The notes: generated by a model not told the origin, from the letters alone. Positions 1-62,932 are shown, numbered from the stretch's first letter. The stretch: 64,000 bases of DNA from Clostridiales bacterium (GCA_022508265.1 JAFLVP010000003.1:39500-103499); one strand, 5' to 3'. Made by a program: numbers and translations.

Positions 1-1447
1 GGTCGGCTATGGTTCTTGCAACCTTTATAATCCTCGTCCTTGCGCGGGCGGAAAGATGCAGAGTTTCGAACGCCGTGCGCAGAATGTTTTCGCACTCCTT
101 TGAAAGCTTACAGTACTTTTTAATCTGTCTCTCGCCCATATTCGAGTTTACGGCAATATTTTCTTCGCAAAACCTCTCTCTTTGAATTGCGCGCGCTCTT
201 TCTACACGCTCTTTTACCTTTGCGCTCGGTTCCTCGCTTCCCTCTCCCGAGAGGTCGTCGTATTTTACGCCGTCCACCTCGACCTGCAAGTCAATTCTGT
301 CTAAAAGCGGACCCGAAATTTTACTTCTGTATTTATGAATTTGTGCGGGCGTACAGGTGCAAGTGAGATGCGCCGAACCGTAATTTCCGCAGGGGCAGGG
401 GTTCATACTTGCGCAGAGAATAAAATCTGCAGGAAAAGTGACGGCTCCGCCCGCGCGGGTTACTGTTATTATTTTATCTTCAAGGGGCTGACGAAGGGAT
501 TCGAGTGCATTGCGTGTATATTCGGGCAACTCGTCCAAAAACAGTACGCCCTTGTGCGCTTTGGAAATTTCGCCGGGATGTATTTTGCTGTTCCCGCCTC
601 CGCAGAGCGATACGGTAGTCGCCGTGTGGTGAGGCGTTCTGAATGGACGCAGGGATACAATTCCCTCCTCGTTGAGCTCGCCCGCAACCGAGTGTATTTT
701 GGTAACTTCCAAAGCCTCGTCAAAGGTCATATCGGGCATAATCGTAGGAATACACCTTGCAAGCAAGGTCTTGCCCGTTCCGGGAGGACCTGCAAGCAGA
801 ATATTGTGACCGCCCGCAACGGCAATCTCCAACGCTCTTTTAGCCGTTTTCTGACCGCGCACGAGCGACATATCGTAGTTGTAGTTATTCTCCTTCTGCG
901 TTGCCGTAAAATCGCGGTGCGCTACGGGCTTAAACGCCCTCTCTCCCTTTAAAAACTCCACGGTGTCGCGAAGTGAGGCCAGCGCGTAAACCTCCGTACC
1001 CGCCAAATAGCTCGCCTCGTTGGCGTTGCCCTTGGGCACAATAAAGCGGGTACAGCCCTTCGCCTTTGCCGATATGAGTATGGGCATTATGCCCGTCACG
1101 GGGCGCAAGCCTCCGTCGAGGGCAAGCTCGCCCAAAAATACCGTGCCGTCCGTGTCGGCTTCAAGCTGGTCGCTCGCCTTCAATATGCTTATAGCAATGG
1201 GCAAATCGTAGTGCGAACCCTCTTTTTTTATGTCCGCGGGCGCAAGATTTATAGTTATTTTGTTTACGGGAAAGTTAAGAGCGCTGTTTTTTATGGCGGA
1301 GCGCACGCGCTCCTTGCTCTCTTTTACGGCGGCGTCGGGCAACCCTACGAGGTCGTAGGACACAATACCCTTGTTTATATCCGTCTCTATCTGAACGGCA
1401 ACGCCTTCAAGTCCGTTTAAAGCAAAGCTCGCAATTTTAGACAGCAT
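1..1447 (-). CDS. comM: ComM/YifB-family Mg-chelatase-like AAA+ ATPase; C-terminal part runs off the left edge
   Basis: Not in the ORF track because it is open at the window edge. My own reverse translation from the ATG at 1447 reads MLSKIASFALNGLEGVAVQIETD...LLAGPPGTGKTLLARC... The Walker A motif GPPGTGKT is present. Confidence 0.85.
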   Translation of the reverse strand, partial: MLSKIASFALNGLEGVAVQIETDINKGIVSYDLVGLPDAAVKESKERVRSAIKNSALNFPVNKITINLAPADIKKEGSHYDLPIAISILKASDQLEADTDGTVFLGELALDGGLRPVTGIMPILISAKAKGCTRFIVPKGNANEASYLAGTEVYALASLRDTVEFLKGERAFKPVAHRDFTATQKENNYNYDMSLVRGQKTAKRALEIAVAGGHNILLAGPPGTGKTLLARCIPTIMPDMTFDEALEVTKIHSVAGELNEEGIVSLRPFRTPHHTATTVSLCGGGNSKIHPGEISKAHKGVLFLDELPEYTRNALESLRQPLEDKIITVTRAGGAVTFPADFILCASMNPCPCGNYGSAHLTCTCTPAQIHKYRSKISGPLLDRIDLQVEVDGVKYDDLSGEGSEEPSAKVKERVERARAIQRERFCEENIAVNSNMGERQIKKYCKLSKECENILRTAFETLHLSARARTRIIKVARTIAD

Positions 1448-2017: not shown

Positions 2018-2206
2018 TTCACAAAAATTAAAAACTATTCTGCGTTTTCAATTTTTCGTGAGTTTTGGGAACTAAGTTCCCCTTTGCGCAATCTTTAAGG
2101 GCAAACAATAATATGATTGCGCAAATTCCCCTCCACGAAGGCGTAGGCATACGCAAATTGGGTGCGCAAGCAAAAAGCGTGGTTTTTGCTTGCGCCGTTA
2201 AAAGTT
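2018..2206 (-). repeat. Family-1 mosaic hairpin repeat, full copy (head ACGGCGC to tail TTTTGTGAA reads on the minus strand)
   Basis: Five consecutive hairpins, e.g. GCAAGCAAAAA/TTTTTGCTTGC, GCGTA/TACGC, TTTGCGCAATC/GATTGCGCAAA, GGGAAC/GTTCCC, TCACGAAAAATT/AATTTTTGTGA. Alignable to copies at 3952, 27061, 37214, 55504 and 11373. Confidence 0.9.
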
Positions 2207-3354: not shown

Positions 3355-3941
3355 TTTTTTGTAAAGCTCCTGCGGTGAACGGGGCATATTCCCGCCCGTT
3401 TTATGGCGTCTATGTGAGTTTTGGTTCCGTAGCCCTTGTGCTTTGCAAAGCCGTATTCGGGGTAAAGCCTGTCGTATTCGTCCATGACGGCGTCCCTGTA
3501 AACCTTGGCGATAATGGACGCTGCGCCTATCGAATAGGACAAGCTGTCGCCCTTTACTATACTCATCTGCTCATAGGGAATATCCAGCGTCATATTGCCG
3601 TCCGTCAGCACGAAATCAGGCTTAATTTTAAGGCTTTCAACCGCATTTTTCATACACAGCTTTGTTGCCTCTAAAATGTTTATTTCGTCAATAATTTGCG
3701 GTTCAATGCGGCATATTGCGTGGGCAATTGCCTTTTTTTGAATTTGCTCCGCCAGCGTTTCACGCTTTTTTGCGGACAGTTTTTTGCTGTCGTCAACCCC
3801 CTCGATTATATCGTCAAGGGGCATAATTACGGCGGCGCAGACGACGGGCCCCGCAAGCGGACCTCTGCCCACCTCGTCAACTCCGCAGATATATTTTGCT
3901 CCCCTTTCAAGGAGTTCTCTTTCGTAAATAAGCTTATCCAT
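3345..3941 (-). CDS. rnhB: Ribonuclease HII
   Basis: GVDEVGRGPLAGPVV motif. ORF-track start 3995 is a TTG inside a repeat element. The ATG at 3941 (MDKLIYERE...) gives the usual N-terminus, but the start remains uncertain. Confidence 0.9.
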   Translation of the reverse strand: MDKLIYERELLERGAKYICGVDEVGRGPLAGPVVCAAVIMPLDDIIEGVDDSKKLSAKKRETLAEQIQKKAIAHAICRIEPQIIDEINILEATKLCMKNAVESLKIKPDFVLTDGNMTLDIPYEQMSIVKGDSLSYSIGAASIIAKVYRDAVMDEYDRLYPEYGFAKHKGYGTKTHIDAIKRAGICPVHRRSFTKKWQ

Positions 3942-3951
3942 ATCAAAATGT

Positions 3952-4136
3952 CTTACGGCGCAAGCAGAACCACGCTTCTGCGCCCGCGCACTCAATTTGC
4001 GAATACTTTCGCCTCAGTGGAAGTGAATGCCCGCATTTTTATTATTGTTTGCCCTTATAGAATGCGGGCAGAGAAACTTAGTTTCTCAAACTCACGGAAA
4101 ATATGCTTCGCAGAATAGAAGCTTATTTTCGTGAAC
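3952..4136 (+). repeat. Family-1 mosaic hairpin repeat, full copy
   Basis: ACGGCGCAAGCAGAACCACGCTTCTGCG...TTGTTTGCCCTTATAGAATGCGGGCA GAGAAACTTAGTTTCTC ...TCACGGAAAATATGCTTCGCAGAATAGAAGCTTATTTTCGTGAAC. Close to the copy at 27061. Confidence 0.92.
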
Positions 4137-10743: not shown

Positions 10744-10945
10744 ACAAATTCATACCTCTCAATAAGCTCACGCCCGCACGAGCACGGCGTCGCTTTTTAC
10801 ACCGCTTTGAATACGGCGTGTAAATACCGTTACAAGCAAGTAATTACACTTGCTATTATAGTATCGATTGTTTCAAATGTTAAGCAATTTGAAAAGGTTG
10901 ATTTTGCCACTTTAAAAAAAATTGAAAAAAATTTTAAAAAACCTC

Positions 10946-11372: not shown

Positions 11373-11586
11373 TTCACAAAAATTTAATTCTATTCTGCGA
11401 ATTGAATTTTTCGTGATTTGGGGAACTAAGTTCCCCTTTACGCGATTTTTAAGTGCAAACGATTATAAAATTACGCAAATTCCCCTTGGGTTCGGGAGGG
11501 AAAGCGCAGTTTTCCCGCCCGCCATGGAGTGTTTTAAAAAGTTCACAAAAATATGCCTCTATTCTGCGCCGACTATTTTTGTGAAC
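11373..11586 (-). repeat. Family-1 mosaic hairpin repeat, variant with a tail hairpin at both ends
   Basis: TTCACAAAAATTTAATTCTATTCTGCGAATTGAATTTTTCGTGA, GGGGAACTAAGTTCCCC, ... and a second TTCACAAAAATA...TATTTTTGTGAA (perfect 12-bp stem) at 11541-11586. Confidence 0.85.
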
Positions 11587-11657
11587 AGGCTTTTTTTATG
11601 TTGCAATTTAGCTTTTTGTTTGATATAATCATATAGAAGTTTATATACGGAGATTAT

Positions 11658-12384: not shown

Positions 12385-12491
12385 CCTTGGATTAGAAACG
12401 AGTAGTTCAAGGCGCACGAGGCTTTCCGACACGAGTTTACTACCCGTAAATGAGTTAGGAAAACGCAGAAATGCGCAGTTTATAATACAAG
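12385..12491 (+). repeat. Family-2 long imperfect palindromic element (subtype shared with 62815)
   Basis: CCTTGGATTAGAAAC...GAGTTTAC-TACCC-GTAAATGA...GTTTATAATACAAG. About 90% identical to 62815-62932. Confidence 0.85.
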
Positions 12492-27014: not shown

Positions 27015-27060
27015 CCGTTTCCCCCAACAGCCAAAAAGTAGCTTTTGATTTTTTAAATAT

Positions 27061-27245
27061 TTAACGGCGCAAGCAGAACCACGCTTCTGCGACCGCGCAC
27101 CCGATTTGCGAATACCTTCGCCTCGGTGGAAGTGAATGCCCGCAATTCATCACTTGTTTGCCCTTAAATATTGCGGGCAGAGAAACTTAGTTTCTCAAAA
27201 TCACGAAAATTTGTTTTCGCAGAATAGAAAACAAATTTTGTGAAC
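27061..27245 (+). repeat. Family-1 mosaic hairpin repeat, best-preserved full copy
   Basis: H1 GCAGAA/TTCTGC, H2 GCGAA-TACC-TTCGC, H3 TGCCCGCAAT...ATTGCGGGCA, H4 GAGAAAC-TTA-GTTTCTC, H5 TCACGAAAATTTGTTTTC-GCAGAATA-GAAAACAAATTTTGTGA. Confidence 0.93.
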
Positions 27246-37144: not shown

Positions 37145-37213
37145 AAGTTTCTCCTTTAGTATTTTAATATATTATTTTATTTTTGTTTTTAGTATTCAAT
37201 AAGTAATTTTTTA

Positions 37214-37496
37214 AACGCTTTACGGCGCAAGGAGGGTTTTTCTCCGCCCGCGCACCCAATTTGCGAACGCTTGCGCAGAATAGCTTTTAATTTTTAAACT
37301 TCTCAAACGCTTTACGGCGCGCCCCAAAATCACACTTTTGGGGATGCGCACCCAATTTGCGCATACCTGCGCTCAAAAGAAAGGAATTGCCGTAATTCTA
37401 TGTTTGTTTGCCCTTAAAAATTGCGACAAGGGAAACATTGTTTCCCAAACCTCACGAAAATTTGCTTGCGCAGAATAGCAAGAAAATTTTGTGAAT
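37214..37496 (+). repeat. Family-1 mosaic hairpin repeat with a duplicated head module
   Basis: CGCTTTACGGCGC occurs twice (37216 and 37302). H1 variants GGAG/CTCC and CCCCAAAA/TTTTGGGG, H2 GCGCA-TACC-TGCGC, H4 GGGAAAC-ATT-GTTTCCC, H5 ...GCAGAATAG...TTTTGTGAA. Confidence 0.88.
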
Positions 37497-42221: not shown

Positions 42222-42391
42222 AAATTTGATTCCTCCGTTAAAATTTTAAAAAATAGAATATGTTATATAAACCGTTTGGCGTCCGTCTTAAAAGTGGAAT
42301 GTAGACGGATTAGCCAAAAGGGATTGTTTTCAAAGCACAATAAAGCATTTTAAAACGCAGAGAAGCAAGCAGACGCTCACTTCCGCAAGTC

Positions 42392-42515
42392 TAAAACACA
42401 GAGAGGCAAGCAAGACAAGGAGCGCGCGGATATGTCGACGGGAGCGTACACAGAAGTACGTGACCGAGACATAACGCAAGCGCGACACCGTATTGCGACG
42501 CCTATATGTGTTTTA
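42392..42515 (+). repeat. Family-2 long imperfect palindromic element (rpmJ-rpsM spacer)
   Basis: TAAAACACAGAGAGGCAAGCAAGAC...ATGTCGACGGGAGCGTAC-ACAGAA-GTACGTGACCGAGACAT...GTATTGCGACGCCTATATGTGTTTTA. The last 3 nt are the rpmJ stop codon. Confidence 0.85.
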
Positions 42516-42629
42516 TCCCTGGCGTTGCTTGTGGGACTTGTTTTTAGAACAAATCACCATAACTTTGCCGTTTCTTTTGATAACCTTGCATTTGTCGCAC
42601 ATAGGTTTTACAGAAGGTCTTACTTTCAT
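42513..42629 (-). CDS. rpmJ: 50S ribosomal protein L36 (38 aa, below the ORF-track cut-off)
   Basis: Own translation: [49 protein letters not shown]. Between infA and rpsM as expected. Confidence 0.93.
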
Positions 42630-42693
42630 AACTTTCTCCTAATTTCTTTACGCGCTCTCGCGCGGGAATTTGCTTGTGACTAATTATTCGTAA

Positions 42694-42915
42694 TCAGTTC
42701 TTGCTGCGCCAGGTAATTCTGCCCTTGGTAAGATCGTACGGGCTTATTTCAAGCTTGACGTTGTCGCCCTCTATAATTCTGATATAGTTGAGACGAAGCT
42801 TGCCCGAAATGTACGCCGTTATGATATGGCCGTTGGTAAGTTTAACCTTGAACGTTGCATTGGGAAGGCACTCTATTACCTTGCCCTCTGTTTCAATTAC
42901 GTCGTCTTTAGACAT
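42694..42915 (-). CDS. infA: Translation initiation factor IF-1
   Basis: 73 aa. [26 protein letters not shown]... Confidence 0.97.
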
Positions 42916-42925
42916 AGAACTCCTT

Positions 42926-43225
42926 TTATTTTTCCGCGTCCGCGGATTTAATATTGAACCTTTTGAGTGCGGAAATTACCTCCGCGTCGTAAACCTTGAC
43001 CCCTTTTGAGAGCTTTTCCGCAATTTCTTCATTTTTTTCGGGAAGCAGGTACAGATGCTTTAAATTTTTGCGCTTGGGTGCGGAAACCTTTTTATACTTT
43101 CCGTCCACAACAAGGACAAATTCGCCGTCTATTAAAAAGATTAAATAGTATTTGTCCTTATCTCTGCCCTGTGTGCTCTTGCAGACGCCCCCCAAAACGG
43201 GAGTTTTATTCTTCATATATTTCAC
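42926..43225 (-). CDS. KOW-domain-like small RNA-binding protein commonly found between map and infA in Clostridia
   Basis: 99 aa. [19 protein letters not shown]... Positional conservation supports the call. Function unknown. Confidence 0.65.
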
Positions 43226-43239
43226 TTAATATATTTCAC

Positions 43240-43986
43240 TTAAAGAGTTAATATTTCAACGCCGTCCTCTGTGATAAGTACGGTGTTCTCGTAGTGCGCC
43301 GCACATTTGCCGTCGGCGGTCGTAACCGTCCAGCCGTCGTTATTATCCATCAGGACTCTGTATGTACCGAGGGTAATCATCGGCTCTATGCAGATTGTCA
43401 TACCCGCTTTAAGCCGCATACCTGTGCCCCTCTTGCCGTAGTTGGGAACGCCGGGGTCCTCGTGCATACTTCTGCCTATTCCGTGACCCGTGAGCGCACG
43501 GACGACTCCGTAGCCGTGGCTTTCCGCATGCGTCTGAACGGCGTAGCCTATATCGTAGAGGTGCGAGCCTGCCCGCAGACCTTCGATTGCCTTGAAAAAG
43601 CACTCCTCGGTAACTTTTACAAGCTTTTTCCTCTCCTCGGACACGTTGCCGATAAGAAAGGTTCTTGCCGCGTCGCCGTGGAAGCCGTTCTTTTCAGCCG
43701 TTATATCCACGCTGACTATGTCGCCGTCCAAAATAACTCTGTCGCCGGGAATTCCGTGTACCACGACCTCGTTTACGGATACGCACGAGCTTGCGGGATA
43801 GCCTTCAAAGCCGAGTTCGGAGGGATAGGCGCCGCAGGAGATAATATACTTGTAGACGAGATCGTCCACTTCCTTCGTAGTCATCCCCGCGTGTATCCTG
43901 CTACCCACAAAGTCAAGCGTTTCCTTGACTATGCGGCAGCTTTCACGCATAAACTCAATTTCCTTGGGAGTCTTTACGGTAATCAT
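43240..43986 (-). CDS. map: Type I methionine aminopeptidase
   Basis: 248 aa with metal ligands in the usual context (VVHGIPG, DIVSVDI, GHGIG, ICIEP, ENTV). Confidence 0.96.
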   Translation of the reverse strand: MITVKTPKEIEFMRESCRIVKETLDFVGSRIHAGMTTKEVDDLVYKYIISCGAYPSELGFEGYPASSCVSVNEVVVHGIPGDRVILDGDIVSVDITAEKNGFHGDAARTFLIGNVSEERKKLVKVTEECFFKAIEGLRAGSHLYDIGYAVQTHAESHGYGVVRALTGHGIGRSMHEDPGVPNYGKRGTGMRLKAGMTICIEPMITLGTYRVLMDNNDGWTVTTADGKCAAHYENTVLITEDGVEILTL

Positions 43987-44609
43987 TGTTTATCTAAAAT
44001 TTCCTCAATCTGCGCGAACACTTCGTCCGGACTGCCCTCGCCGCTCTTTACGCATTTAAGCTTGCCCTGCGCCTTGTAGTACCCGATAAGGGGCGCGGTC
44101 TGACTGTTGTAGGTGTCAAGCCTTGCCTTGACCGTTTCGGGATTGTCGTCTGCACGCCGATAGAGCGCGCCGCCGCACTTTGCGCAAGCGGTTGCGCCGC
44201 CCAGCGTAGAGACGTGATAGCTCTGTCCGCAGGAGCACACCCTTCTTCCGCAAATTCTGTCCATAAGAAGTTTTTCGTCAACTTCTATGTTGAGACAGAG
44301 GTCAATTTGCGCAAATTTATCCAGCCTCTCCGCCTGAAAGATATTGCGGGGAAAGCCGTCGAGCATATATCCGCCCTTAACGTCGTCCTTTTGCAATCTG
44401 TCCTCTACGATGTCGCAAGTGACTTCGTCGGGAACGAGCTTGCCCGCGTCGATATAAGATTTGGCAAGCTTGCCAATCTCGGTTCCGCCCTTTATGTTGG
44501 CACGGAAAATATCGCCCGTGGAGATGTGCAGGACATTGTATTTCTGCGCAATTTTACTTGCCTGCGTGCCCTTGCCTGCGCCGGGTGCGCCCAAAAGAAT
44601 TATGTTCAC
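43983..44609 (-). CDS. adk: Adenylate kinase (Cys4 zinc lid)
   Basis: 208 aa. GAPGAGKGTQ P-loop. Lid has CSCG...CAKCG. Confidence 0.97.
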   Translation of the reverse strand: MNIILLGAPGAGKGTQASKIAQKYNVLHISTGDIFRANIKGGTEIGKLAKSYIDAGKLVPDEVTCDIVEDRLQKDDVKGGYMLDGFPRNIFQAERLDKFAQIDLCLNIEVDEKLLMDRICGRRVCSCGQSYHVSTLGGATACAKCGGALYRRADDNPETVKARLDTYNSQTAPLIGYYKAQGKLKCVKSGEGSPDEVFAQIEEILDKQ

Positions 44610-44628
44610 TTATATTTCCCTGTCTTTC

Positions 44629-46020
44629 TTATTTGAGGAAGCCCTTATACGTCTTCATCATAAGCTGCGATTCAAGCTGTTTGTCAAGCTCGAGCGCAAC
44701 GGATACGACGATGAGAATACCCGTCGTGGAGAATACCGACAAGAGGGTAAGATTGCTCTGACCGAGACTTGCGAGTACTATCGAGAGTATCGAGGGAATA
44801 AACGCTACGAGCGAGAGATAAATCGCACCAAAGAGCGTAATTCTGTTGGAAATCTTTTTGAGGTGGTCGGACGTGGGCTTGCCGGGTCTTATACCCTGAA
44901 TAAAGCCGCCGTTCTGCTGAATTGTCTTGGAGACGTCCTCGGGGTTGAACTGCATCGACTGATAGAAGAACGAGAAAGCAAATATAAGTAAGCAAAGCGT
45001 TACCATATATATGAGCTGACCGTACCATTGAGGCGACGAGCCCGAGAACCAGATAGTGATATTCTTTGCAGCGTCCGTATTGGGCCAGAAGAGGCTGATA
45101 AGGAGCTGCGGGAAGGAAATGAGGGCGAACGCGAAGATTAAAGGCATGACGCCCGAGCCCGAAATCTTGATGGGGATTACGGACGACTGACCGCCGTACA
45201 TCTTTCTGCCCTTTACCTGCTTTGCGTACTGAACGGGAATCTTTCTCTCGGACAAATCTACCGTTACGATTGCGGCAAATTCGACAACCGTCAAAAGCAC
45301 GAAGCCGAGAACCTCCCACAAAACGGAGGGATTTGCCTTTCCAGCATAGTCGCCCCAGCCGAATGCTTCGGTAAATCTGTCGACGATGGTAAGTCCCGCG
45401 GTGGAGATAATACCGACGAAGATTATGAGCGAAATACCGTTGGATACGCCGTATTCGGTTATTCTTTCGCCGAGCCACATAACGAGCATCGCACCTGCCG
45501 TATAGACTACGGTGAGGAATATACCCGCCATAACTTTAGCTCCCGTTTCGGAAACTACCGAGAGCTCTGTATTCTGTGAAAAATAGCCAAAGAAATTGAG
45601 GTTGAGCGCGTTGCTGTTTATACCGAAGTTGATGATTATACCTATTGCCTGCGCAATTGCAAGGGCAATAGTCACAAAGCGCGTTATCTGCGCTATTTTC
45701 TTTCTGCCGTCTTCGCCTTCCTTTGACAGCCTTTCAAGGGCGGGAATTCCAACCGTTAAAAGCTGGATAATAATCGACGCATTGATATACGGGCTTATGC
45801 CGAGCGCAAACAGCGTTGCACTTGCAAGCGAACCACCCGTTATGGACGAGAGAACGCCCAAAAACTCGTTGCCTTCGATTACGCTCTTAAATTCCGATAC
45901 CTTGATACCGGGGACGGGAATATAACAGCCGAGTCTGAAAATAAGAAGCAGTATAAGCGTTAAAAATATCTTCTTTCTTATTTCTTTGACTTTAAAACAG
46001 TTTTTAATTGTTTCAAACAT
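44629..46020 (-). CDS. secY: Preprotein translocase subunit SecY
   Basis: 463 aa, 10 TM helices, typical SecY sequence. Positioned between rplO and adk. Confidence 0.97.
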   Translation of the reverse strand: MFETIKNCFKVKEIRKKIFLTLILLLIFRLGCYIPVPGIKVSEFKSVIEGNEFLGVLSSITGGSLASATLFALGISPYINASIIIQLLTVGIPALERLSKEGEDGRKKIAQITRFVTIALAIAQAIGIIINFGINSNALNLNFFGYFSQNTELSVVSETGAKVMAGIFLTVVYTAGAMLVMWLGERITEYGVSNGISLIIFVGIISTAGLTIVDRFTEAFGWGDYAGKANPSVLWEVLGFVLLTVVEFAAIVTVDLSERKIPVQYAKQVKGRKMYGGQSSVIPIKISGSGVMPLIFAFALISFPQLLISLFWPNTDAAKNITIWFSGSSPQWYGQLIYMVTLCLLIFAFSFFYQSMQFNPEDVSKTIQQNGGFIQGIRPGKPTSDHLKKISNRITLFGAIYLSLVAFIPSILSIVLASLGQSNLTLLSVFSTTGILIVVSVALELDKQLESQLMMKTYKGFLK

Positions 46021-46060
46021 TTTAAACCTCTTTCAAGGGGATTTAACCTTGAAGCTTTAA

Positions 46061-46176
46061 TCAGTTAAGATACGAGCAAGACAAGGCGTGCGAGGAAAAC
46101 CCGAGGGAGTTTACTATAACGTAAATGACCGAGAGTTGCCACAGCACAACGCAGTATTGCGAAGTATATTAGCTGA
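46061..46176 (+). repeat. Family-2 long imperfect palindromic element (rplO-secY spacer)
   Basis: TCAGTTAAGATACGAGCAAGAC...CCGAGGGAGTTTAC-TATAAC-GTAAATGACCGAG...GTATTGCGAAGTATATTAGCTGA. The 3' arm overlaps the last two codons and the stop of rplO. Confidence 0.85.
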
Positions 46177-46618
46177 TTACCTCGCAAGTGCCGCCCGCTT
46201 TCTCGATAGCCTCTTTTGCGCTTGCCGAGAATTTTGCGGCTTTTACAGTGAGAGCAACCTCTAATTTGCCCGTGCCGAGCACTTTGAGCCCTGCCGAGTC
46301 CTTAACTTCCTTTGCAAGGTTGTGGCTTGCAACGTATTCGAAGTCAATTACCGTGCCTGCCTTTTCGTTTGCAAGCTGGCTGAGATTAACTATAGTGTAG
46401 TGCGTAGCCCATTTATTGTGGAAACCGCGTTTGGGGATACGTCTTGCAAGAGGCATCTGACCGCCTTCGAAGCCGGGACGAACGCCGCCGCCCGAACGCG
46501 CCCACTGACCCTTGTGACCCTTACCGGAAGTCTTGCCGAGTCCCGAGCCTATACCTCTGCCGAGTCTTTTAACGCTGTGTCTTGCGCCCTCTGCGGGCGA
46601 TAAAGTATCTATTCTCAT
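46169..46618 (-). CDS. rplO: 50S ribosomal protein L15
   Basis: 149 aa. [19 protein letters not shown]. Confidence 0.97.
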
Positions 46619-46627
46619 AAATTCACC

Positions 46628-46801
46628 TTAAACCTTTTCGACAAGCACAAGATGGGCAACCTTTTTAATCTGCCCCAAATTTGCGGGAGTTTCCTCCAAA
46701 GTCTTTGATTGACGGATTTTTTTAAGCCCCAATGCGGCGATTGTGTCCTTTATGGACTTAATCTGACCGTTTGTGCTTTTAATTAAAGTAACTTTAACCA
46801 T
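46628..46801 (-). CDS. rpmD: 50S ribosomal protein L30 (57 aa, below the ORF-track cut-off)
   Basis: Own translation: MVKVTLIKSTNGQIKSIKDTIAALGLKKIRQSKTLEETPANLGQIKKVAHLVLVEKV. Between rpsE and rplO. Confidence 0.92.
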   Translation of the reverse strand: MVKVTLIKSTNGQIKSIKDTIAALGLKKIRQSKTLEETPANLGQIKKVAHLVLVEKV

Positions 46802-46813
46802 TTCAATTCTCCA

Positions 46814-47347
46814 TTATGCTTTGAGTTCGTCAACACTCTTGCCGCGAGCCGCCGCAACCTCTTCGGGCGATTTAAGCTCGTAGAGTCCGCAGACTGCCGC
46901 CTTTACGCAGTTAATAGGGTTGGAAGTGCCGTGCGACTTGGTTCTTACGTCCTTTACGCCCGCTGCTTCCATAACCGCACGCACGGGACCGCCCGCGATA
47001 ACGCCGGTACCTTCGGAGGCAGGCATCATAAGCACCGAGCCTCTGCCGAAAACGCCGAGTACGGAGTGGGGAATAGAAGTGCCGGCAAGCGCCACCTTCT
47101 TCATATTTTTTTTAGCCTGAGCGTTTGCCTTTTCGATAGCCTCGGGAACTTCCTTGCTCTTTGCCATACCGTAGCCAACGTTGCCCTTGCCGTCGCCGAC
47201 GACAACAAGCGCCGCAAAGCGCATATTTCTACCGCCTTTAACGGTCTTGGAAACCCTGTTTACCTGTATAAGTTTTTTGATTAAGCCGTCGTCTTCCTGC
47301 CTTCTTCTGTTATCTCTTCTTGCAGGTCTTTCTTTCTTTTCTTCCAT
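46814..47347 (-). CDS. rpsE: 30S ribosomal protein S5
   Basis: ORF trimmed to the ATG at 47347, preceded by AAGGAG plus 6 nt. [12 protein letters not shown] motif. Confidence 0.96.
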
Positions 47348-47357
47348 ATCAAACTCC

Positions 47358-47726
47358 TTAGAAATCAAGTCCGGCTTCTCTTGCGCCGTCTGCCAATGCC
47401 TGAACGCGTCCCGTGTAGAGGTAGCCGCCTCTGTCGAACACGACCTGCTTTATGCCGAGTTTAGTTGCCTTTTCCGCAACGCACTTTCCGACGACCTTGG
47501 CTGCGTCGGTCTTGTTGAGACCTGCAACCTTGCTCTTTACGTCCTTTTCCATTGTGGAAGCCGAGCAAAGGGTCACGCCCTTGGTATCGTCGATAACTTG
47601 CGCATAAATATGGTTAAGAGACCTGTAAACGCTGAGTCTGGGCGTTTCAGCCGTTCCGCTGACCTTTTTGCGGACACGCAGATGTCTTCTTAAACGTTCC
47701 TTGTTCTTATCAATTTTAGTAATCAT
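47358..47726 (-). CDS. rplR: 50S ribosomal protein L18
   Basis: ORF trimmed to [21 protein letters not shown], preceded by an AGGAGA RBS. Confidence 0.96.
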
Positions 47727-47773
47727 AATATCTCCTATGGACAAGTTAACCAAACAAGTGGTTAATCCTTCGG

Positions 47774-47888
47774 GTTATCAGTCGCGCGCAAGACAAGGCG
47801 AGTGAGCATTTTTTTGAGGGAGCGTACACAGAAGTACGCGACCGAAAAAAAGCGGAACTCAACGCTGTATTGTGCGATGAATGATAAC
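47774..47888 (+). repeat. Family-2 long imperfect palindromic element (rplF-rplR spacer)
   Basis: GTTATCAGTCGCGCGCAAGAC...CATTTTTTTGAGGGAGCGTAC-ACAGAA-GTACGCGACCGAAAAAAAG...GTATTGTGCGATGAATGATAAC. Confidence 0.85.
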
Positions 47889-47894
47889 ACGAAA

Positions 47895-48443
47895 TTATTT
47901 CTTGCCTTTGCCTCCCGTCTTACCTTCCTTACGCTCGATTACTTCGTCGCTGTACGCAATGCCGTAACCGTGGTAAGGTTCGGGAATTCTGATGTTTCTG
48001 ATATCGGCTGCCGTCTGTCCGACAAGAATTTTGTCTATGCCGGATACGGTAATTTCGTTTGCGGTAGGGCATTCAAGCTTGATACCCTGCGGTTCAACGA
48101 AATCTACGGGGTGCGAATAGCCTACGTTGAGAACAATTTTGTTGCCCTGCTTTGCGACCTTCCAGCCGACGCCGTTGACTTTGAGCGTCTTCTTGTAGCC
48201 GTCGGTAACGCCGACAACCATATTGTGAAGAAGTGCGCGGTAAAGTCCGTGTTTAGCGTTTGCATCGGGAGTTTGGGAAGTTTTTTCAACGATAGCTTCC
48301 GTACCCTCTACCTTGATGTTGATGTCGCCGACAACTGTCTGGGTAAGCGTGCCCTTGCTGCCCTTTACGGTCAAAAGTCCGTTTTCAAAGGTAACGGTTA
48401 CGCCTGCGGGTAAAGCTACGGGTAATTTTCCTATTCTTGACAT
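47895..48443 (-). CDS. rplF: 50S ribosomal protein L6
   Basis: 182 aa. MSRIGKLPVALPAGVTV... Confidence 0.97.
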   Translation of the reverse strand: MSRIGKLPVALPAGVTVTFENGLLTVKGSKGTLTQTVVGDINIKVEGTEAIVEKTSQTPDANAKHGLYRALLHNMVVGVTDGYKKTLKVNGVGWKVAKQGNKIVLNVGYSHPVDFVEPQGIKLECPTANEITVSGIDKILVGQTAADIRNIRIPEPYHGYGIAYSDEVIERKEGKTGGKGKK

Positions 48444-48457
48444 ATTTAATTACCTCC

Positions 48458-48850
48458 TTACCAGATGTAGCACAGCACTTCGCCGCCTACGTTCTGCGCC
48501 TTTGCCTGCTTGCCCGTCATAATGCCCTTGTTGGTGGAAAGAATGGCAATGCCGAGTCCGTCCATAACCTTGGGCATAGTGTCCACGTCCGAATAGACGC
48601 GAAGTCCGGGACGGGAAACTCTTTTAAGTCCGTTTATAACGGGCTTTTTCTTGCCTGCGTACTTGAGGGTTATAACGATTTTGCCGTTATAGCCGTCTTC
48701 TTCGTAATCAGCTCCGGAAATATAGCCCTCGTTAAGCATAATATCCGCAATCGCCTTTTTCATATTGGATGAGGGAATCTCAACCTTTTCTTTATTAGCT
48801 GCAAGCGCGTTTCTTACGCGTGTGAGCATATCTGCAATAGGATCTGTCAT
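48458..48850 (-). CDS. rpsH: 30S ribosomal protein S8
   Basis: 130 aa. [15 protein letters not shown]... Confidence 0.97.
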
Positions 48851-48866
48851 ATTTTCGCTCCTCCTC

Positions 48867-49052
48867 TTACCAACTCGATTTCTTCACGCCGGGAATCTGT
48901 CCCTTGTAAGCGAGGTTTCTGAAACATATACGGCATACTCCGTACTTGCGCAAAACCGCGTGAGGTCTTCCGCAAATGGAGCACCTTGTGTATGCTCTCG
49001 TCGAGTATTTAGCAGGTCTCTGCTGTTTATTTATCATTGATTTCTTTGCCAT
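48867..49052 (-). CDS. rpsN: 30S ribosomal protein S14, type Z (zinc-binding, 61 aa)
   Basis: [20 protein letters not shown], a CxxC...CxxC motif. Confidence 0.96.
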
Positions 49053-49061
49053 AAAAACTCC

Positions 49062-49712
49062 TTACTTCTTGAAGGGCATACCCATCGCCCTCAAAAGCTC
49101 TCTCGCTTCTTCATCGCTCTTTGCCGTGGTTACGAAACAGATGTCCATACCCCTTATCTTCTCTACCTGATCGTATTGAATTTCGGGGAACATAAGCTGT
49201 TCCTTAACGCCCGTGCAGTAGTTGCCCTTGCCGTCGAAGCTCTCTGCGGATACGCCGCGGAAGTCGCGAACTCTGGGAAGTGCAATAGAAATGAACTTAT
49301 CGAAGAAATCGTACATCATCTTGCCGCGGAGAGTTACCTTTAATCCGATAATCATACCTTCACGAACCTTGAAGTTTGCAACCGACTTCTTTGCCTTGCA
49401 GGTTACGGGCTGCTGTCCCGTAATGAGCTTCATTTCGCTTTGAGCCATCTGAATTGATTTTGCGTTGTCCTTGATATCGCCGAGTCCCGAGCTTACTACG
49501 ATTTTAACAAGCTTGGGAACCTGCATAACGTTTTTATAGCCGAATTTAGCGGTGAGTGCGGGAACGACTTCCTTTTCGTACTGTTCCTGAACTCTTGAAA
49601 CGTATTTCTTTTCAGCCGCAGGCGCCTTTTTGGCGGTTTTGGGTGCAGCTGCTTTTACTGTCTTTTCTTCTTTTACTTCGGCGTTTTCAGCCGCTGTCTT
49701 TTTAGTAGCCAA
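49062..49712 (-). CDS. rplE: 50S ribosomal protein L5 with a ~36-aa Lys/Ala-rich N-terminal extension
   Basis: 216 aa. TTG start at 49712 sits 7 nt after AAGGAGG and 12 nt after the rplX stop. The L5 core begins around [17 protein letters not shown]. Confidence 0.93.
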
Positions 49713-49723
49713 CTCGCACCTCC

Positions 49724-50149
49724 TTATTCAGCGTCGCCGCCCGTCGTTTCGGGGGTTTCTTCGTCTTTCTTCGCGCGTTTTCTTACACGCTTCTTGGGAG
49801 CTTCTTCCTTCTTGGCAGCAGCCTTCTTGCCCGCGTATGCCTTGTCGAGCACTGCGCCGCATTTGCCGCACACTCTGTGCTTTTTATCGCCTTCTACGGA
49901 ATACTTAACTCTTATTGCTTTGCCGCACGCGTCGCAAACTACCATTACGTTGGATACGTCCAGGGGAGCGGCGATTTCGACGATTTCGGAAATTTCGTTT
50001 GCCTTTCTTGCCTTCTTCGCCTTCTTGTGAATATTCACGCCCTCGACCGTAACCGTGCCTTTCTTGGGAGAGGTGGCAACTACCTTGCCCTGCTTGCCCG
50101 CATACTTACCTGTGATAACTAAAACGTTGTCGTTTAATTTTACGTTCAT
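49724..50149 (-). CDS. rplX: 50S ribosomal protein L24 with a CxxC...CxxC motif and a ~35-aa Lys-rich/acidic C-terminal tail
   Basis: 141 aa. KOW N-terminus ([17 protein letters not shown]), [10 protein letters not shown]...[10 protein letters not shown]. Confidence 0.95.
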
Positions 50150-50165
50150 AGCACTTCTCCTTTAA

Positions 50166-50534
50166 TTACAGCACTTCGGGAGCGAGCGAGATAATCTTCA
50201 TATAGTTCTTCTCACGAAGCTCCCTTGCAATCGGTCCGAAAATACGCGTACCGCGAGGTTCTTTGTTGGTGTTTATTATTACTGCGGCATTGTCGTCGAA
50301 ACGGATATAAGTACCGTCGTCGCGTCTGATGCCCTTGGAACTGCGCACGATAACCGCCTTTACCACTTCGCCCTTTTTAACGGCGCCGCCGGGGGTTGCC
50401 GTTTTAACCGAGCAGACGATTACGTCACCGATGTTCGCCGTCTTTCTGAACGAGCCACCGAGTACTTTTATGCACATAAGTTCCTTTGCGCCGCTGTTGT
50501 CTGCGGCTTTAAGTCTTGTTTGAGGTTGTATCAT
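50166..50534 (-). CDS. rplN: 50S ribosomal protein L14
   Basis: 122 aa. [27 protein letters not shown]. Confidence 0.97.
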
Positions 50535-50692
50535 AAAAACTCTCCTATTTTTGAACTTACAACTGTGTGCAGAGGATTATCTTACAGACACATAAGTGAA
50601 GTTGAGCGCCCCACTCTCCTTTGCCTGTGAATGACAATCATACATTATTTTATTATATCTTGCTCTCCCGCAATCGCGGGAGTCTGTCTAAA

Positions 50693-50807
50693 ATTCAGAG
50701 ATACGAGTTAGGCGAGGCGCACGAGCACCGACCGCAGGGAGTTTACATTGAGGTAAATGACCAAGGCGGCGCGGAGTGCAACAAAGCATAACGACGTATA
50801 TATGAAT
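50693..50807 (+). repeat. Family-2 long imperfect palindromic element (rpsQ-rplN spacer)
   Basis: ATTCAGAGATACGAGTTAGGC...CCGCAGGGAGTTTAC-ATTGAG-GTAAATGACCAAGGCGG...GCATAACGACGTATATATGAAT. Ends 1-2 nt before the rpsQ stop codon. Confidence 0.85.
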
Positions 50808-50808
50808 T

Positions 50809-51066
50809 TTACTTTGCTTTTTCAATTATTTCGGCAACGCGCCAATTCTTATCCTTTGAAAGCTTGCGCGTTTCCACTATTCTGACCTTATCGCCCTCGC
50901 CGCACTCGTTGTTCTCGTCGTGCGCCTTGAAGCGGGTCGTTCTTAAAATGGTCTTTTTATAGAGGGGGTGCTTGCGGTTATCTCTGACCGCAACGACTAC
51001 CGTCTTGTCCATCTTGCTGGATACGACAATGCCCACTCTTTCTTTCCTTAAAGATGTTCTTTCCAT
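50809..51066 (-). CDS. rpsQ: 30S ribosomal protein S17
   Basis: ORF trimmed to the ATG at 51066 ([16 protein letters not shown]...), 8 nt after AAGGAG. Confidence 0.96.
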
Positions 51067-55503: not shown

Positions 55504-55689
55504 CTCACGAAATTTTATTTCTTGATGCGAATTAAAATTTCCGTGACTTGGGAGGCGCCGCCTCCCTTTACGCGATTTTAAGGGCACACCATTATATACT
55601 CGCGTAAATTCCCTCTGCTGAGGCGCAGGTTTGCGCAAATTGAGTTGCGCGGCGGAAAAACGTGGTTTTCCTTGCGCCGTAAAGCGTTG
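55504..55689 (-). repeat. Family-1 mosaic hairpin repeat, divergent full copy inside the S10 operon (rpsJ-rplC spacer)
   Basis: TCACGAAATTTTA...TAAAATTTCCGTGA, GGGAGGCG/CGCCTCCC, TTTACGCGA...TCGCGTAAA, GCGCA/TGCGC, GGAAAA-CGTGG-TTTTCC, GCGCCGTAAAGCG. Confidence 0.85.
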
Positions 55690-55809
55690 AGAATGTTCGG
55701 TTATTTTAATTGCTCAATAATAAATTTCGTATATTTCAGATACCGCGCCGCGCCGTCCCGCCGTTTCCGTCGTCTGCGCTCCGTAGAGTATCTTTATTGA
55801 CTTAATTGA

Positions 55810-58631: not shown

Positions 58632-58652
58632 AGCCCCCGAAATTCGGGGGCT
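58632..58652 (+). terminator. Possible terminator hairpin after the EF-G paralog (no clear T-run)
   Basis: AGCCCCCGAA-A-TTCGGGGGCT. Confidence 0.4.
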
Positions 58653-58653
58653 T

Positions 58654-58691
58654 AAAAAATGTAAAGCGCGTTGCGATTTCGCAACGCTCTT
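58654..58691 (-). terminator. Intrinsic terminator after the GTPase pair
   Basis: Minus strand: AGCGTTGCGA-AA-TCGCAACGC(G)CT followed by TTACATTTTTT. Confidence 0.6.
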
Positions 58692-58695
58692 TACT

Positions 58696-59643
58696 TTAAT
58701 AGTAAGTAGCAACGGGTTCCTCGGGCGGGTCGGAGTATTCAAGCTTTACAGCCTTTATTACGGGACCCTTGGAGCGGTACATTGAATTGTACTCAATGCC
58801 GATTACGCCCGTGACCGTTACCCAGTCCCTCGTCTTGACATCGGGGAGCATACCCCCCGACTTTACGGCAAATCCGTCGTAAGCGGTGTCCGCCTCGCAA
58901 CAGGTCATAATGTGTCTGCCGAGGATAAAGCAGTCCTTGCCCGCCTTCTTTGAAAGCGCCGCCATGCCCTTGAATTTTACCGTCTTGCCGATATAGTCGG
59001 AGGTGTTTTCCGCCATATCGCGATAGAACCAAGCAAAATCTCTGTCCTCGATTTCAATTATTTTTGCGTTCTTGTCGAAGGGCAGCGGGTCCTCTATCTC
59101 GTCGAACTCGGCTTTGCCTCCCACATATTCGTAGACGATATCGGGACGGCGGGAAATTCCGCGCACGATTTTATGAAAGGCAAGCTTGTCGTATTCGGGC
59201 TTGAAACGGTTGAAAACAACCATCTGCGTCATCTGAATTTTATCGAATACGAGCTGACGCATATTTGCGTTGTAATTTAAAAAGGTTGCGCTATCAAAGA
59301 AAGTCATCATCTGCACGATAACCCAATCTTCTGGCATGGCGTCAAAGAACTGTTGCAAAAGCCATGTTCCGTTGAACTCCGCCACCACCCTCTGAGCGCC
59401 GTATTTTTGGGCAAGCGAAGAAAGATTGTCCGCGTTTAGCTCGTCCACGCTCTCCAAAGTGACTTTGGCAACGTTTTTAACCTCGAACTTTTCGGGAATA
59501 TATTCCTCCTCCCCCTCCTCGCAGACGAGCAGCATTGTGCGCTGACCGTTCTCCATGCGGGGGTCTTCGAGCGTTTCCTGTATGAATTTGGTCTTGCCCG
59601 ACTCTAAAAAGCCGAGAAAAAGATAAACTTCTATATCCTGCAT
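58696..59643 (-). CDS. Fusion of a degenerate G3E/CobW-like P-loop domain with a DUF1980 (TIGR03943-type C-terminal) domain
   Basis: 315 aa. N-terminus has GFLESGKT but lacks the CxCC motif. The C-terminus ...GRHIMTCCEADTAYDGFAV... matches my recollection of the MTCC-AAD motif of DUF1980. Its start abuts the stop of the upstream CobW gene. Confidence 0.6.
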   Translation of the reverse strand: MQDIEVYLFLGFLESGKTKFIQETLEDPRMENGQRTMLLVCEEGEEEYIPEKFEVKNVAKVTLESVDELNADNLSSLAQKYGAQRVVAEFNGTWLLQQFFDAMPEDWVIVQMMTFFDSATFLNYNANMRQLVFDKIQMTQMVVFNRFKPEYDKLAFHKIVRGISRRPDIVYEYVGGKAEFDEIEDPLPFDKNAKIIEIEDRDFAWFYRDMAENTSDYIGKTVKFKGMAALSKKAGKDCFILGRHIMTCCEADTAYDGFAVKSGGMLPDVKTRDWVTVTGVIGIEYNSMYRSKGPVIKAVKLEYSDPPEEPVATYY

Positions 59644-60741
59644 TTATACTCCGAATAATTCGGCGAGCTCTTCGCCGTCGATTTTGCTGCCTATTACGCA
59701 CAGTCTGCCCGTGTACGCCGCTACCCCGTCGCGCACGTCGATTTCGCCGGGGATATAGTCGAAATGTATCCACTTATTATCCTCGCCCGCAACTATGCCC
59801 TTTGCGCGGAGTACCGTGCCGTAGGTAACCGCGTCCGAAAGCTTGGAAAGGGCTGTTTGTATCTGCTCTTTAGAAAACTTCTTGCCGGTCTCTATGCCCC
59901 AACTTGTGAACACCTCGTCGGCGTGATGATGGTGTTCATGTTCGTGGTCATGGTGGCAACAATGCCCGTCGTGGCCGTGATGGTGTTCGTGGTGACAGTG
60001 TTCGTGTTCTTCGTCATCGTCGTGATGACAACAATGCCCGTCGTGGTCGTGATGGTGTTCGCCGTGACAGCACTCACCGCCGTGGTGGTGCCCGTGGTGG
60101 CAGTGCTCGTGCTCCTCTTCAAGCTCTTTCAATTCGTCCGCGAGGGTGCGCGAGTGCTCCATAGCCTCAAGAATTTGCTTGCCGTCGAGCTCGTTCCAAG
60201 CGGTGGTAACAATTGTTGCGTGTGCGTTGTGCGCCTTTACGAGTTCGACTGCGGTAGCAAGCTTTTCCGCCGAGGCAACGTCCGTATGGCTGAACACTAT
60301 GCAAGCGGCGGTTTCAATCTGGTCGTTGAAAAATTCGCCGAAGTTCTTCATATACATCTTGCACTTGGCGGCGTCCACTACAGCCGTGTAGGAATTTACA
60401 GTGCAGTTTTCAAGCTGTGCGCTCTCAACCGCACGGATAACGTCGGAGAGCTTGCCCACGCCCGAGGGCTCAATTAAAATCCTGTCTGGGTTGTATTCTT
60501 GTTGAACCTTTTGAAGCGCCTTTGAAAAATCGCCCACGAGCGAACAGCAGATACAACCCGAGTTGAGTTCGTTAATCTTTATGCCCGCCTCCGCCAAAAA
60601 TCCGCCGTCGACGCCTATCTCGCCGAATTCGTTCTCAATCAGAACAAGGTTTTCGCCCGCGTACGCCTCTTTTATGAGCTTTTTTATAAGCGTAGTCTTG
60701 CCCGCGCCCAAAAATCCCGAAAAAATATCAATCTTAGTCAT
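59644..60741 (-). CDS. CobW/COG0523-family G3E GTPase (putative zinc metallochaperone) with a ~70-aa His/Cys-rich insert
   Basis: 365 aa. GFLGAGKTT, the CICCSL metal motif, IEPSG. Insert: EHEHCHHGHHHGGECCHGEHHHDHDGHCCHHDDDEEHEHCHHEHHHGHDGHCCHHDHEHEHHHH. Confidence 0.88.
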   Translation of the reverse strand: MTKIDIFSGFLGAGKTTLIKKLIKEAYAGENLVLIENEFGEIGVDGGFLAEAGIKINELNSGCICCSLVGDFSKALQKVQQEYNPDRILIEPSGVGKLSDVIRAVESAQLENCTVNSYTAVVDAAKCKMYMKNFGEFFNDQIETAACIVFSHTDVASAEKLATAVELVKAHNAHATIVTTAWNELDGKQILEAMEHSRTLADELKELEEEHEHCHHGHHHGGECCHGEHHHDHDGHCCHHDDDEEHEHCHHEHHHGHDGHCCHHDHEHEHHHHADEVFTSWGIETGKKFSKEQIQTALSKLSDAVTYGTVLRAKGIVAGEDNKWIHFDYIPGEIDVRDGVAAYTGRLCVIGSKIDGEELAELFGV

Positions 60742-61596: not shown

Positions 61597-61663
61597 AGGG
61601 GAACTTGGTTCCCCTGATTACGAAAAATTCCTTACGCAGAACAGTAAGGAATTTTTCGTGAAC
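61597..61663 (+). repeat. Family-1 repeat, partial copy (H4 plus H5 only)
   Basis: GGGGAAC-TTG-GTTCCCC, then TTACGAAAAATTCCTTAC-GCAGAACA-GTAAGGAATTTTTCGTGAA. Confidence 0.8.
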
Positions 61664-62814: not shown

Positions 62815-62932
62815 CCTTGGATTAGAAACAAGCAGTTCCAGGCGCGCGAGGCTTTCCGACACGAGTTTACTACCCGTAAATGAGTTAGGAAAATGTAGCG
62901 CAACGTCGAAATGCGAAGTTTATAACCCAAGG
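62815..62932 (+). repeat. Family-2 long imperfect palindromic element (subtype shared with 12385)
   Basis: CCTTGGATTAGAAAC...GAGTTTAC-TACCC-GTAAATGA...GTTTATAACCCAAGG. The outer arms pair at 13 of 15 positions. Confidence 0.85.

Follow-up and report, generated by a model that had tools for sequence, protein, structure and literature searches.

The six repeats found in a stretch of DNA from a Clostridiales bacterium (GCA_022508265.1 JAFLVP010000003.1:39500-103499; 64,000 nucleotides, hereafter the window) probably represent a distant member of the ERIC/IRU superfamily of ~120-bp non-autonomous repeats, and most likely a co-transcribed mobile hairpin. ERIC, also termed IRU or RU-1, was reportedly described by Sharples and Lloyd in 1990 and by Hulton et al. 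in 1991. It is a ~127-bp MITE with a TA duplication, and in Yersinia it has an orientation- and ribosome-dependent effect on mRNA that is exerted through RNase E (PMC2229807, PMC3184786, PMC10969869); the dependence of this effect on both orientation and ribosomes is documented further (PMC2229807, PMC3049150). Only Enterobacteriaceae and Vibrionaceae are given as ERIC hosts in reviews (PMC10969869, PMC3184786, PMC2267715). The relationship proposed here extends the superfamily to Clostridia and to several other phyla.

A profile HMM built from the six predicted segments and run with nhmmer over the 64-kb window returned exactly six places, all on the + strand, with E = 2.6e-20 to 5.8e-27; the next best match had E = 0.54. 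A covariance model built from the six window copies only (R1) scored 75.6-113 bits on these copies and, with filters off, at most 16 bits in the rest of the 64-kb window, where the top additional match (58652-58701, 16 bits) is an ordinary terminator-like hairpin. All six copies are thus where the original prediction had them (Table 1). The degenerate seventh copy suspected near 10766-10850 was not recovered, since R1 gives nothing there even at E <= 10 with filters off. The repeats had been described as ~110 nt long. They are indeed multi-copy imperfect palindromes of ~110-125 nt, but with the outermost helix included the length of the element is about 119-131 nt.

Table 1. Copies of the repeat and adjoining features in the window (positions counted from the first nucleotide of the window).
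Feature	Position	Strand	Inverted repeat	TA dinucleotides	Stop codon of upstream gene	Evidence
pyrH-frr copy, CCTTGGATTAG subtype	12385..12491	+				R1 75.7 bits; pyrH and frr by NCBIfam
One-armed remnant of a second copy (TAAAACGCAGAGAAGCAAGCAGAC...)	42350..42391 (approximate)	+				sequence read; adjoins the full rpmJ-rpsM copy
rpmJ-rpsM copy	42392..42515	+	42394-42513	42392-93 and 42514-15	rpmJ TAA, complement of 42513-15, first triplet of outer helix	R1 112.9 bits; fold -55.4 kcal/mol, z -9.4
rplO-secY copy (the copy featured in the original prediction)	46058..46179	+	46060-46177	46058-59 and 46178-79	final two codons and stop of rplO inside outer helix arm	R1 108.2 bits; fold -37.1 kcal/mol, z -5.8
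rplF-rplR copy	47763..47897	+	core 47774-47888; pairing reaches 47765-47895	47763-64 and 47896-97	rplF stop, complement of 47895-97, first triplet of outer helix	R1 107.8 bits; fold -47.1 kcal/mol
Small hairpin CTCCCGCAATCGCGGGAG beside the rpsQ-rplN copy	50668..50685	.				in block missing from empty alleles
rpsQ-rplN copy	50689..50811	+	50691-50809	50689-90 and 50810-11	rpsQ stop, complement of 50809-11, first triplet of outer helix	R1 113.1 bits; fold -40.6 kcal/mol, z -7.2
Copy between two - strand genes, 12385 subtype	62815..62932	+				R1 100.3 bits; fold -35.8 kcal/mol

Four of the copies lie in spacers of the S10-spc-alpha operon, which in the window also contains adk-map-infA. The predicted ribosomal-operon neighbours were identified by NCBIfam (S13, L15, SecY, L6, L18, S17 and L14) and by Pfam (L36). 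The remaining two copies lie in the pyrH-frr spacer and between two - strand genes; these copies are 93% identical over 84 nt. The pyrH-frr copy has the same orientation as its flanking genes and has lost ~10 nt of its 3' arm, and the 62815 copy adjoins a terminator-like hairpin. At the rpmJ-rpsM site the element is also found in loci L141, L144 and L146, and alignment shows that the TAAAACGCAGAGAAGCAAGCAGAC... unit, present in the window as a remnant, is repeated 2-3 times in L141 and L146.

The original prediction did not recognise the family, and counted a match to a known REP or MITE family against its proposal. ERIC is such a family. R1, built from the six window copies, matches all eight ERIC copies in a test set comprising the copy in the E. 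coli ybhI-ybhJ spacer and seven plasmid copies (Citrobacter, Pantoea, Klebsiella, Salmonella, Rahnella and E. coli; six genera). The matches are full length, with scores of 17.1-28.1 bits and E = 2.6e-7 to 5.6e-4, and the opposite strand of the same copies scores at most 3.8 bits. In a search of 772 kb, R1 matches the whole of the E. coli ybhI-ybhJ copy with 25 bits and E = 5e-4. When an HMM of the family was built from sequence alone and without ERIC, the real ERIC ranked first among 3001 sequences (ERIC and 3000 dinucleotide shuffles), with 17.1 bits versus 11.6 bits for the best shuffle. The window copies and ERIC have several blocks in common in the same order, namely CGAG, AAGGCG, GA-GYTTAC-loop-GTAART-GA, AACGCA and GAAGTAT. 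The central core reads ...CAGGAGCTTACATAAGTAAGTGACTG... in E. coli and ...GGGAGTTTAC-N6-GTAAATGACC... in the window, and in both it forms a 6-bp helix with a G.U closing pair and tandem G.A on its flanks. In ERIC this central core is the target of the ERIC1R/ERIC2 typing primers, and the apical motif resembles it. Predicted folds show the same architecture in the window copies, in members from other phyla and in E. coli ERIC, and the end-to-end length of the inverted repeat has a median of 123 nt (112 copies among the matches listed).

Like ERIC, the element is ~120-127 bp long, forms a single long imperfect hairpin, encodes no transposase, occupies intergenic positions within operons with stop codons adjoining, and has size variants with internal insertions or deletions. 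It differs from ERIC in its hosts, which are Clostridia and members of other phyla, in a primary sequence that is only distantly similar, in a shorter outer helix without conserved sequence, and in the location of four window copies inside a ribosomal-protein operon. A common origin with ERIC is likely; the similarity is distant (17-28 bits), and convergence on a similar hairpin is the less likely alternative. Since the host range of ERIC is a taxonomic rather than a mechanistic property, the family is best filed as a new member of the superfamily and not as ERIC proper.

A search of one genome per species (GTDB) with the apical pattern and six degenerate flanking bases identified at least 119 loci, most of them from gut Clostridia MAGs. 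Clostridia hosts among the matches listed include Candidatus Coproplasma, Stercoripulliclostridium, Borkfalkiaceae, Christensenella, Gallimonas and Scatosoma (Bacillota, class Clostridia). The gut Clostridia MAG hosts are Christensenellales-like. R1 matched 151 elements in the loci listed and 41 in ribosomal loci, many with ~100 bits and often several per 8 kb. The window stems from an uncultured member of the Clostridia, and its closest loci among the matches listed are also Clostridia MAGs, of which L071 shares 81% identity with it over 7 kb. Hairpins that are full length and have the same blocks were found in Gammaproteobacteria MAGs, Arcobacteraceae, Mucispirillum, Alistipes, an Alphaproteobacteria MAG and Candidatus Peribacteria. 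Staphylococcus petrasii and Dysgonomonas alginatilytica, both cultured isolates, have them too. Some of the weaker matches may score largely through the apical motif by which they were fetched; the named examples from other phyla fold as complete hairpins. Viral contigs gave zero matches to the apical pattern. As far as a literature search shows, a host range of gut Clostridia and at least five other phyla is new, as are the near-absolute stop-codon polarity and the termini constrained for pairing only that are described below.

Every window copy folds as one long hairpin, as predicted, with + strand minimum free energies of -28 to -55 kcal/mol and z of -3.4 to -9.4 versus shuffles. The two apical versions are likewise as first described, with GAGTTTAC/GTAAATGA in four copies and GAGCGTAC/GTACGYGA in two. 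Among the six window copies alone, 17 of 27 consensus pairs have a compensatory change. The middle helices and their compensatory changes are those of the original prediction, but the changes reflect in part the exchange of whole modules and not stepwise substitution. The proposed asymmetric internal loop, RGGG/GACCRAG, is better read as a GG/CC (or AC/GU) helix between tandem G.A mismatches. In 148 distinct R1-aligned matches, 94.2% of cells are paired compared to 70.4% in column shuffles, and 25 of the 27 pairs vary on both sides; when the partner arm is shifted by 1-3 columns, pairing falls to 24-41%. Because an R1 alignment is fitted to its model, the analysis was repeated with plain MAFFT and RNAalifold on 30 diverse members, which gave 37 pairs, 34 of them compensatory. 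In the same alignment the outermost helix is 9 bp long and has zero sequence conservation. The ends of the element are constrained for pairing, not for sequence. An outermost helix without conserved sequence is unlike a MITE, whose terminal repeats bind transposase, and the lack of a conserved terminal sequence is hard to square with a classical terminal-repeat transposase.

These data also bear on whether the likeness among the copies, and to ERIC, is simply the chance or compositional likeness of generic palindromes such as terminators and REP-like hairpins. R1 matches of ~25 bits can stem from the apical motif alone in loci fetched with that motif, such as L007, L011 and L020. However, the six copies score 76-113 bits in a window that otherwise stays at or below 16 bits, and no shuffle attains the observed pairing. 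The ERIC copies were obtained independently of the apical pattern, of which they have no exact instance, yet eight of eight were matched over their full length and on one strand. Together with the result from MAFFT and RNAalifold, these observations refute chance likeness, which is extremely improbable.

Departures from Watson-Crick pairing in the hairpin, namely two tandem G.A steps, a single G.U and purine-rich loops, are conserved across phyla but on just one of the strands. The G.U at the base of the apical helix is present in 140 of 150 cases. Wobble pairs elsewhere have no strand bias (GU+UG 76 versus AC+CA 68), which rules out wobble asymmetry as a pointer to the functional RNA strand. 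Pairing seems to be required as Watson-Crick complementarity, with the asymmetric features under selection; the G.A, G.U and purine-rich loops are probably maintained by selection, because a palindrome would otherwise drift to perfect complementarity. The model strand folds better than its complement by 3.5-10 kcal/mol in five of the six window copies, and this better-folding strand, with its G.A and G.U, is opposite to the mRNA in ~90% of copies.

The very strong covariation, the conservation of non-canonical motifs in several phyla and the better fold of the model strand could alternatively indicate a selected cis- or trans-acting structured RNA, for example a hairpin that binds protein through its tandem G.A motifs or an antisense RNA from the strand that faces the operon's coding sense, with multi-copy spread as a secondary effect. 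However, template switching in palindromes ("self-correction") can yield paired changes without selection on RNA. Moreover, no promoter or terminator brackets the element in a consensus scan, and its neighbours are unrelated genes. At the gathering threshold Rfam has no match anywhere in the window, and within 42300-51000 no Rfam model matches the elements at E <= 5; a coronavirus UTR hit within the latter region lies away from the elements and is attributable to chance. The fate of individual sites bears on the same question. Sites can be retained across species, as seen with 12 loci (among the matches listed) near one queA-like gene family and with the rpsQ-rplN copy, which is kept in L071 at 81% genome identity. 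Set against this retention, the same spacers lack the element in close relatives with no visible replacement, and one-armed remnants and internal deletions are common. A selected structured RNA is thus quite unlikely as the primary identity of the family.

Comparison of the ribosomal-operon spacers in related genomes, which had been suggested as a check, revealed filled, empty and one-armed alleles. The relatives compared were loci encoding an identical L14 or IF-1 protein. Exact-protein look-ups gave matches for L14, L36 and IF-1 and no identical record for SecY and L30; the identical L14 is encoded in contigs of GCA_022508245.1 and of several metagenomes. Among loci with identical L14, the window, L127 and L130 have the element in the rpsQ-rplN spacer, and L121/L122 have it with an additional 40-nt nested insertion. 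L123 and L128 have a single arm there, and the spacer of L124, L125 and L129 is empty. The empty alleles are without the element and also without a 32-nt stretch that holds the CTCCCGCAATCGCGGGAG hairpin. The rplF-rplR spacer is filled in L121, L124, L125 and L126, and is a 61-nt spacer without the element in L123. At rplO-secY, the window and L143 have the element, and L141/L142 have an empty spacer of 48 nt. The pyrH-frr spacer of L048 is empty and ~10 nt long. The presence of filled, empty and one-armed spacers in close relatives indicates that the element comes and goes. Copies also exchange segments, as indicated by middle helices that are swapped between loci: the middle helix of the window's rpsQ-rplN copy recurs in the rplF-rplR copy of L121, and the T7/A7 middle helix found at rplF-rplR in the window recurs in the rpsQ-rplN copy of L130. 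In places, three or four copies are arrayed head to tail.

The filled and empty alleles provide information on what the element carries with it. L15 ends in ...VIS* or ...VVG* in filled alleles and in ...VAE* in empty alleles, indicating that the element supplies the helix arm, which takes the place of the last codons. The idea that the outer helix is an inverted copy of the target, or a pre-existing hairpin entered through its loop, was rejected on three grounds. Copies of one subfamily at unrelated loci have the same outer helix (three times in L022, and in the TAAAACRCA group); the last rplO codons differ between filled and empty alleles; and in empty alleles the sequence that follows the stop shows no match to the helix arm. 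Each of the four ribosomal-operon copies is flanked by TA, as reported for ERIC, and TA...TA forms the outermost inverted-repeat bases in 18 of 112 copies among the matches listed; at rpsQ-rplN, rplF-rplR and rplO-secY, filled and empty spacers are too diverged for an exact target duplication to be read. Judged from the N-terminal sequences of 715 ORFs from the 119 loci listed, no linked transposase recurs, and the recurrent neighbours are housekeeping genes.

The position of the element relative to genes is strongly polar. Polarity was scored in 167 near-full-length matches (at least 96 nt) from the loci listed, using ORFs of at least 100 codons that read toward the element and end no more than 15 nt from either end. 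A stop codon lies at the model 3' end in 96 elements (TAA 66, TAG 17, TGA 13) and at the 5' end in 3. Among the matches listed that lie between co-directional genes, 66 are opposite to the genes and 7 have the same sense; the median gap is 4 nt on the side of the upstream stop and 91 nt on the side of the next start. Relative to the outer end of the inverted repeat, the stop is mostly at -5 to +2 nt; in a second group the frame enters the element by 9-12 nt and ends at a conserved TATAA/TATAG. In the mRNA sense, the element begins at the stop codon of the upstream gene, and all four ribosomal-operon copies in the window are of this kind (Table 1). The stop of E. coli ybhI touches the same end of its ERIC copy. 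Polarity is far stronger here than in enterobacterial ERIC, in which three stops are at that end and two at the other (n = 8 copies). De Gregorio et al. reportedly found in 2005 that ERICs beside stop codons in Yersinia prefer one orientation.

The polarity and the strand-specific mismatches may also be accounted for if the element acts as single-stranded DNA, serving as a folded-hairpin substrate for recombination or transposition in the manner of attC, IS200/IS605 or REP-RAYT. An enzyme would then recognise the folded hairpin and its conserved mismatches, and not the termini, resulting in strand- and orientation-specific insertion at gene ends. The attC sites of integrons, including Vibrio cholerae repeats, are 57-141-bp imperfect palindromes located after or overlapping stop codons in one fixed orientation. 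Their structure is more conserved than their sequence, and conserved unpaired bases mark one strand. The element resembles attC in being a palindrome at or overlapping a stop codon, in its single orientation and in conserving structure over sequence. An outer helix that pairs without conserved sequence, beside internal loops and mismatches conserved across phyla, fits recognition by shape, and wobble without strand preference (76 versus 68) is expected if pairing is needed in DNA or on both strands. The extreme polarity (96:3 among the matches listed), with stop overlap like that of attC sites, fits as well. All six window copies are on one DNA strand, although one is among + strand genes, and this strand has a negative GC skew; six copies do not decide the matter.

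Other observations argue against a single-stranded DNA substrate. No integrase, HUH or other recombinase gene recurs near copies in the 119 loci listed. When the flanks were read by eye, no conserved RYYYAAC...GTTRRRY core was seen at the ends. The flanking genes are fixed, syntenic housekeeping genes and not cassettes. In addition, co-directional replication would expose the mRNA-like strand, which is without G.A and G.U. The variable termini, the core not seen in the flanks and the neighbours without a recurrent integrase speak against identity with attC itself. The folding strand opposite to mRNA, the question of RNase E discussed below and the variable terminal helix all leave room for a single-stranded DNA substrate more generally, which is nevertheless unlikely.

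Two further groups of bacterial repeats invite comparison with the proposed ERIC/IRU-type element. REP units are 20-40 nt long and G+C-rich, with a conserved GTAG or CGTC head (PMC3733652); REPINs form long hairpins, and REPs may be moved by a single-copy enzyme encoded elsewhere (PMC3116915). Like REP, BIME and REPIN sequences, the element consists of intergenic palindromes that can occur in tandem clusters. Against identity with them, the element forms a single hairpin of ~120 nt around an ERIC-type core, and its neighbours in the loci listed include no recurrent RAYT-like gene. Correia elements (NEMIS) of Neisseria are non-autonomous, ~100-155 bp long, have TA termini, and are co-transcribed as RNA hairpins that are cut by RNase III (PMC2229807, PMC10969869). 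The element is similar to them in being a small non-autonomous repeat that folds as a long hairpin, and its ribosomal-operon copies are flanked by TA. However, Correia elements have conserved terminal repeats of 24-26 bp and IHF or promoter motifs, whereas here the termini are the least conserved part. No sequence resemblance to Correia was noticed, the comparison being one of descriptions.

An ERIC/IRU-type hairpin in these positions would be transcribed as part of the operon mRNA. The RNA would form a long irregular hairpin with the stop codon at its base, and with the base at this position each terminating ribosome would melt the outer helices. As proposed for the Yersinia ERICs in one orientation, local mRNA decay or processing between cistrons may be modulated as a result. 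The elements were not flagged as terminators in a consensus terminator scan. To our knowledge, RNase E is not known in Clostridia, and the mechanism described in Yersinia is therefore not transferable as such. Only the orientation tolerated by operons would persist beside stop codons. Spread of the element would presumably occur by movement in trans, catalysed by a putative enzyme.

ERIC has served as a typing target for 35 years, and its movement and role are still unsettled. Uncultured gut Clostridia abound in hairpins of this architecture with the same conserved mismatches, and Staphylococcus and Dysgonomonas isolates have them too; the ERIC family is thus either much older than its name suggests or more widely transferable. 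Within the most highly expressed essential operon, the element is tolerated in one orientation only and at stop codons only. The naturally filled and empty ribosomal spacers are a ready-made experiment on the effect of the hairpin on operon mRNA, and with so wide a range of hosts it is feasible to look for the mobilising enzyme by comparing genomes. Finally, it may be tentatively speculated that ERIC-type elements are cross-phylum mobile hairpins that are recognised by their shape, possibly by a conserved host-encoded enzyme that reads a folded single strand with its G.A and G.U mismatches and inserts it in one orientation at the 3' ends of genes. If so, the "enterobacterial" ERIC would be only one branch of a shape-recognised class, and the spread of that class over Bacillota, Bacteroidota, Pseudomonadota, Campylobacterota, Deferribacterota and Patescibacteria would make the enzyme findable by phylogenetic profiling.

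The element, an ERIC-like hairpin of ~120 nt, carries a common insert of ~40 nt, AAGCCGTTTCCCMAAAGGGARCCCTCGGCTTSGGTRCGA, in two distinct copies, one in an rpsQ-rplN spacer (L121/L122; L numbers are loci from other genomes, with their own coordinates) and one in an rplO-secY spacer (L143). The insert occupies an identical apical position in both and looks like a nested mini-insertion. It is comparable to the enlarged ERIC variants that were reportedly described by Wilson and Sharp in 2006. Elements also occur head-to-tail, with 3 or 4 per array and a period of about 118-139 nt (L085, L105 and L106). The units in L085 are joined by GATTAGA, and thus the adjacent arms of neighbouring units are also able to pair together.

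The rplN leader is near-invariant across 9/9 relatives, with or without an element in the rpsQ-rplN spacer, and had no match in Rfam. Possible roles are those of an internal promoter or a regulatory leader. Only alleles with the rpsQ-rplN element have the small hairpin CTCCCGCAATCGCGGGAG, and a similar string, ACTCCCGCG, is found in the L141 rplO-secY spacer, where no element is inserted. The hairpin and the string could represent a second tiny repeat, or the likeness could be a coincidence. The rpsJ-rplC spacer of the window is unusually long (170 nt; 55639-55809). Searching it with the covariance model built from the six window copies revealed no element, only an unrelated short hairpin (11.5 bits, E = 0.57). 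A full element is present in the rpsJ-rplC spacer of the relative L071.

Coordinates of element variants, leader and additional repeats
Feature	Location	Strand or context	Sequence or remark
Sites of ~40-nt insert	L121/L122 2688-2842; L143 about 880-925		
Element arrays	L085 1-475; L105 2206-2559; L106 5893-6285		
Full element	L071 700-814		
One-armed remnants	L123/L128; window about 42350-42391; L141, L146	rpsQ-rplN spacer (L123/L128); rpmJ-rpsM spacers (L141, L146)	
rplN leader, ~110 nt	window 50535-50660	-; 5' of rplN	GATTG...CAAAGGAGAGTGGGGCGCTCAACTTCACTTATGTG...AATCCTCTGC...AGTTGTAAGTTCAAAAATAGGAGAG
Small hairpin	window 50668-50685		CTCCCGCAATCGCGGGAG
Composite repeat copies	window 3926-4136, 27035-27245, 37205-37495		
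Composite repeat, partial or related pieces	window 2018-2132, 11373-11486, 11542-11588, 61618-61661		
Two tandem 72-nt units	window 59927-60070	within - strand ORF 59644-60741	82% identical; repeat family D10

The window also harbors another, unrelated repeat family, a composite unit of ~210 nt with the palindromes TCACGAAAAWTT...GCAGAATAG...AAATTTTSGTGAA and 71-89% identity between copies. This is presumably the "first family" implied by the original prediction. All six window copies of the element lie on the + strand, including the pyrH-frr copy, whose flanking genes are on the + strand, and the GC skew of that strand is negative (-0.042). The single-strand placement is compatible with a replication-strand bias, six copies being too few to decide.

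Finally, some spacers retain a single arm of the element, and alongside these one-armed remnants are 2-3 tandem units of ~50 nt, each consisting of one arm plus GACTTGCGGAAGTGAGCG. The remnants and tandem units show that the element decays via deletion and local duplication.
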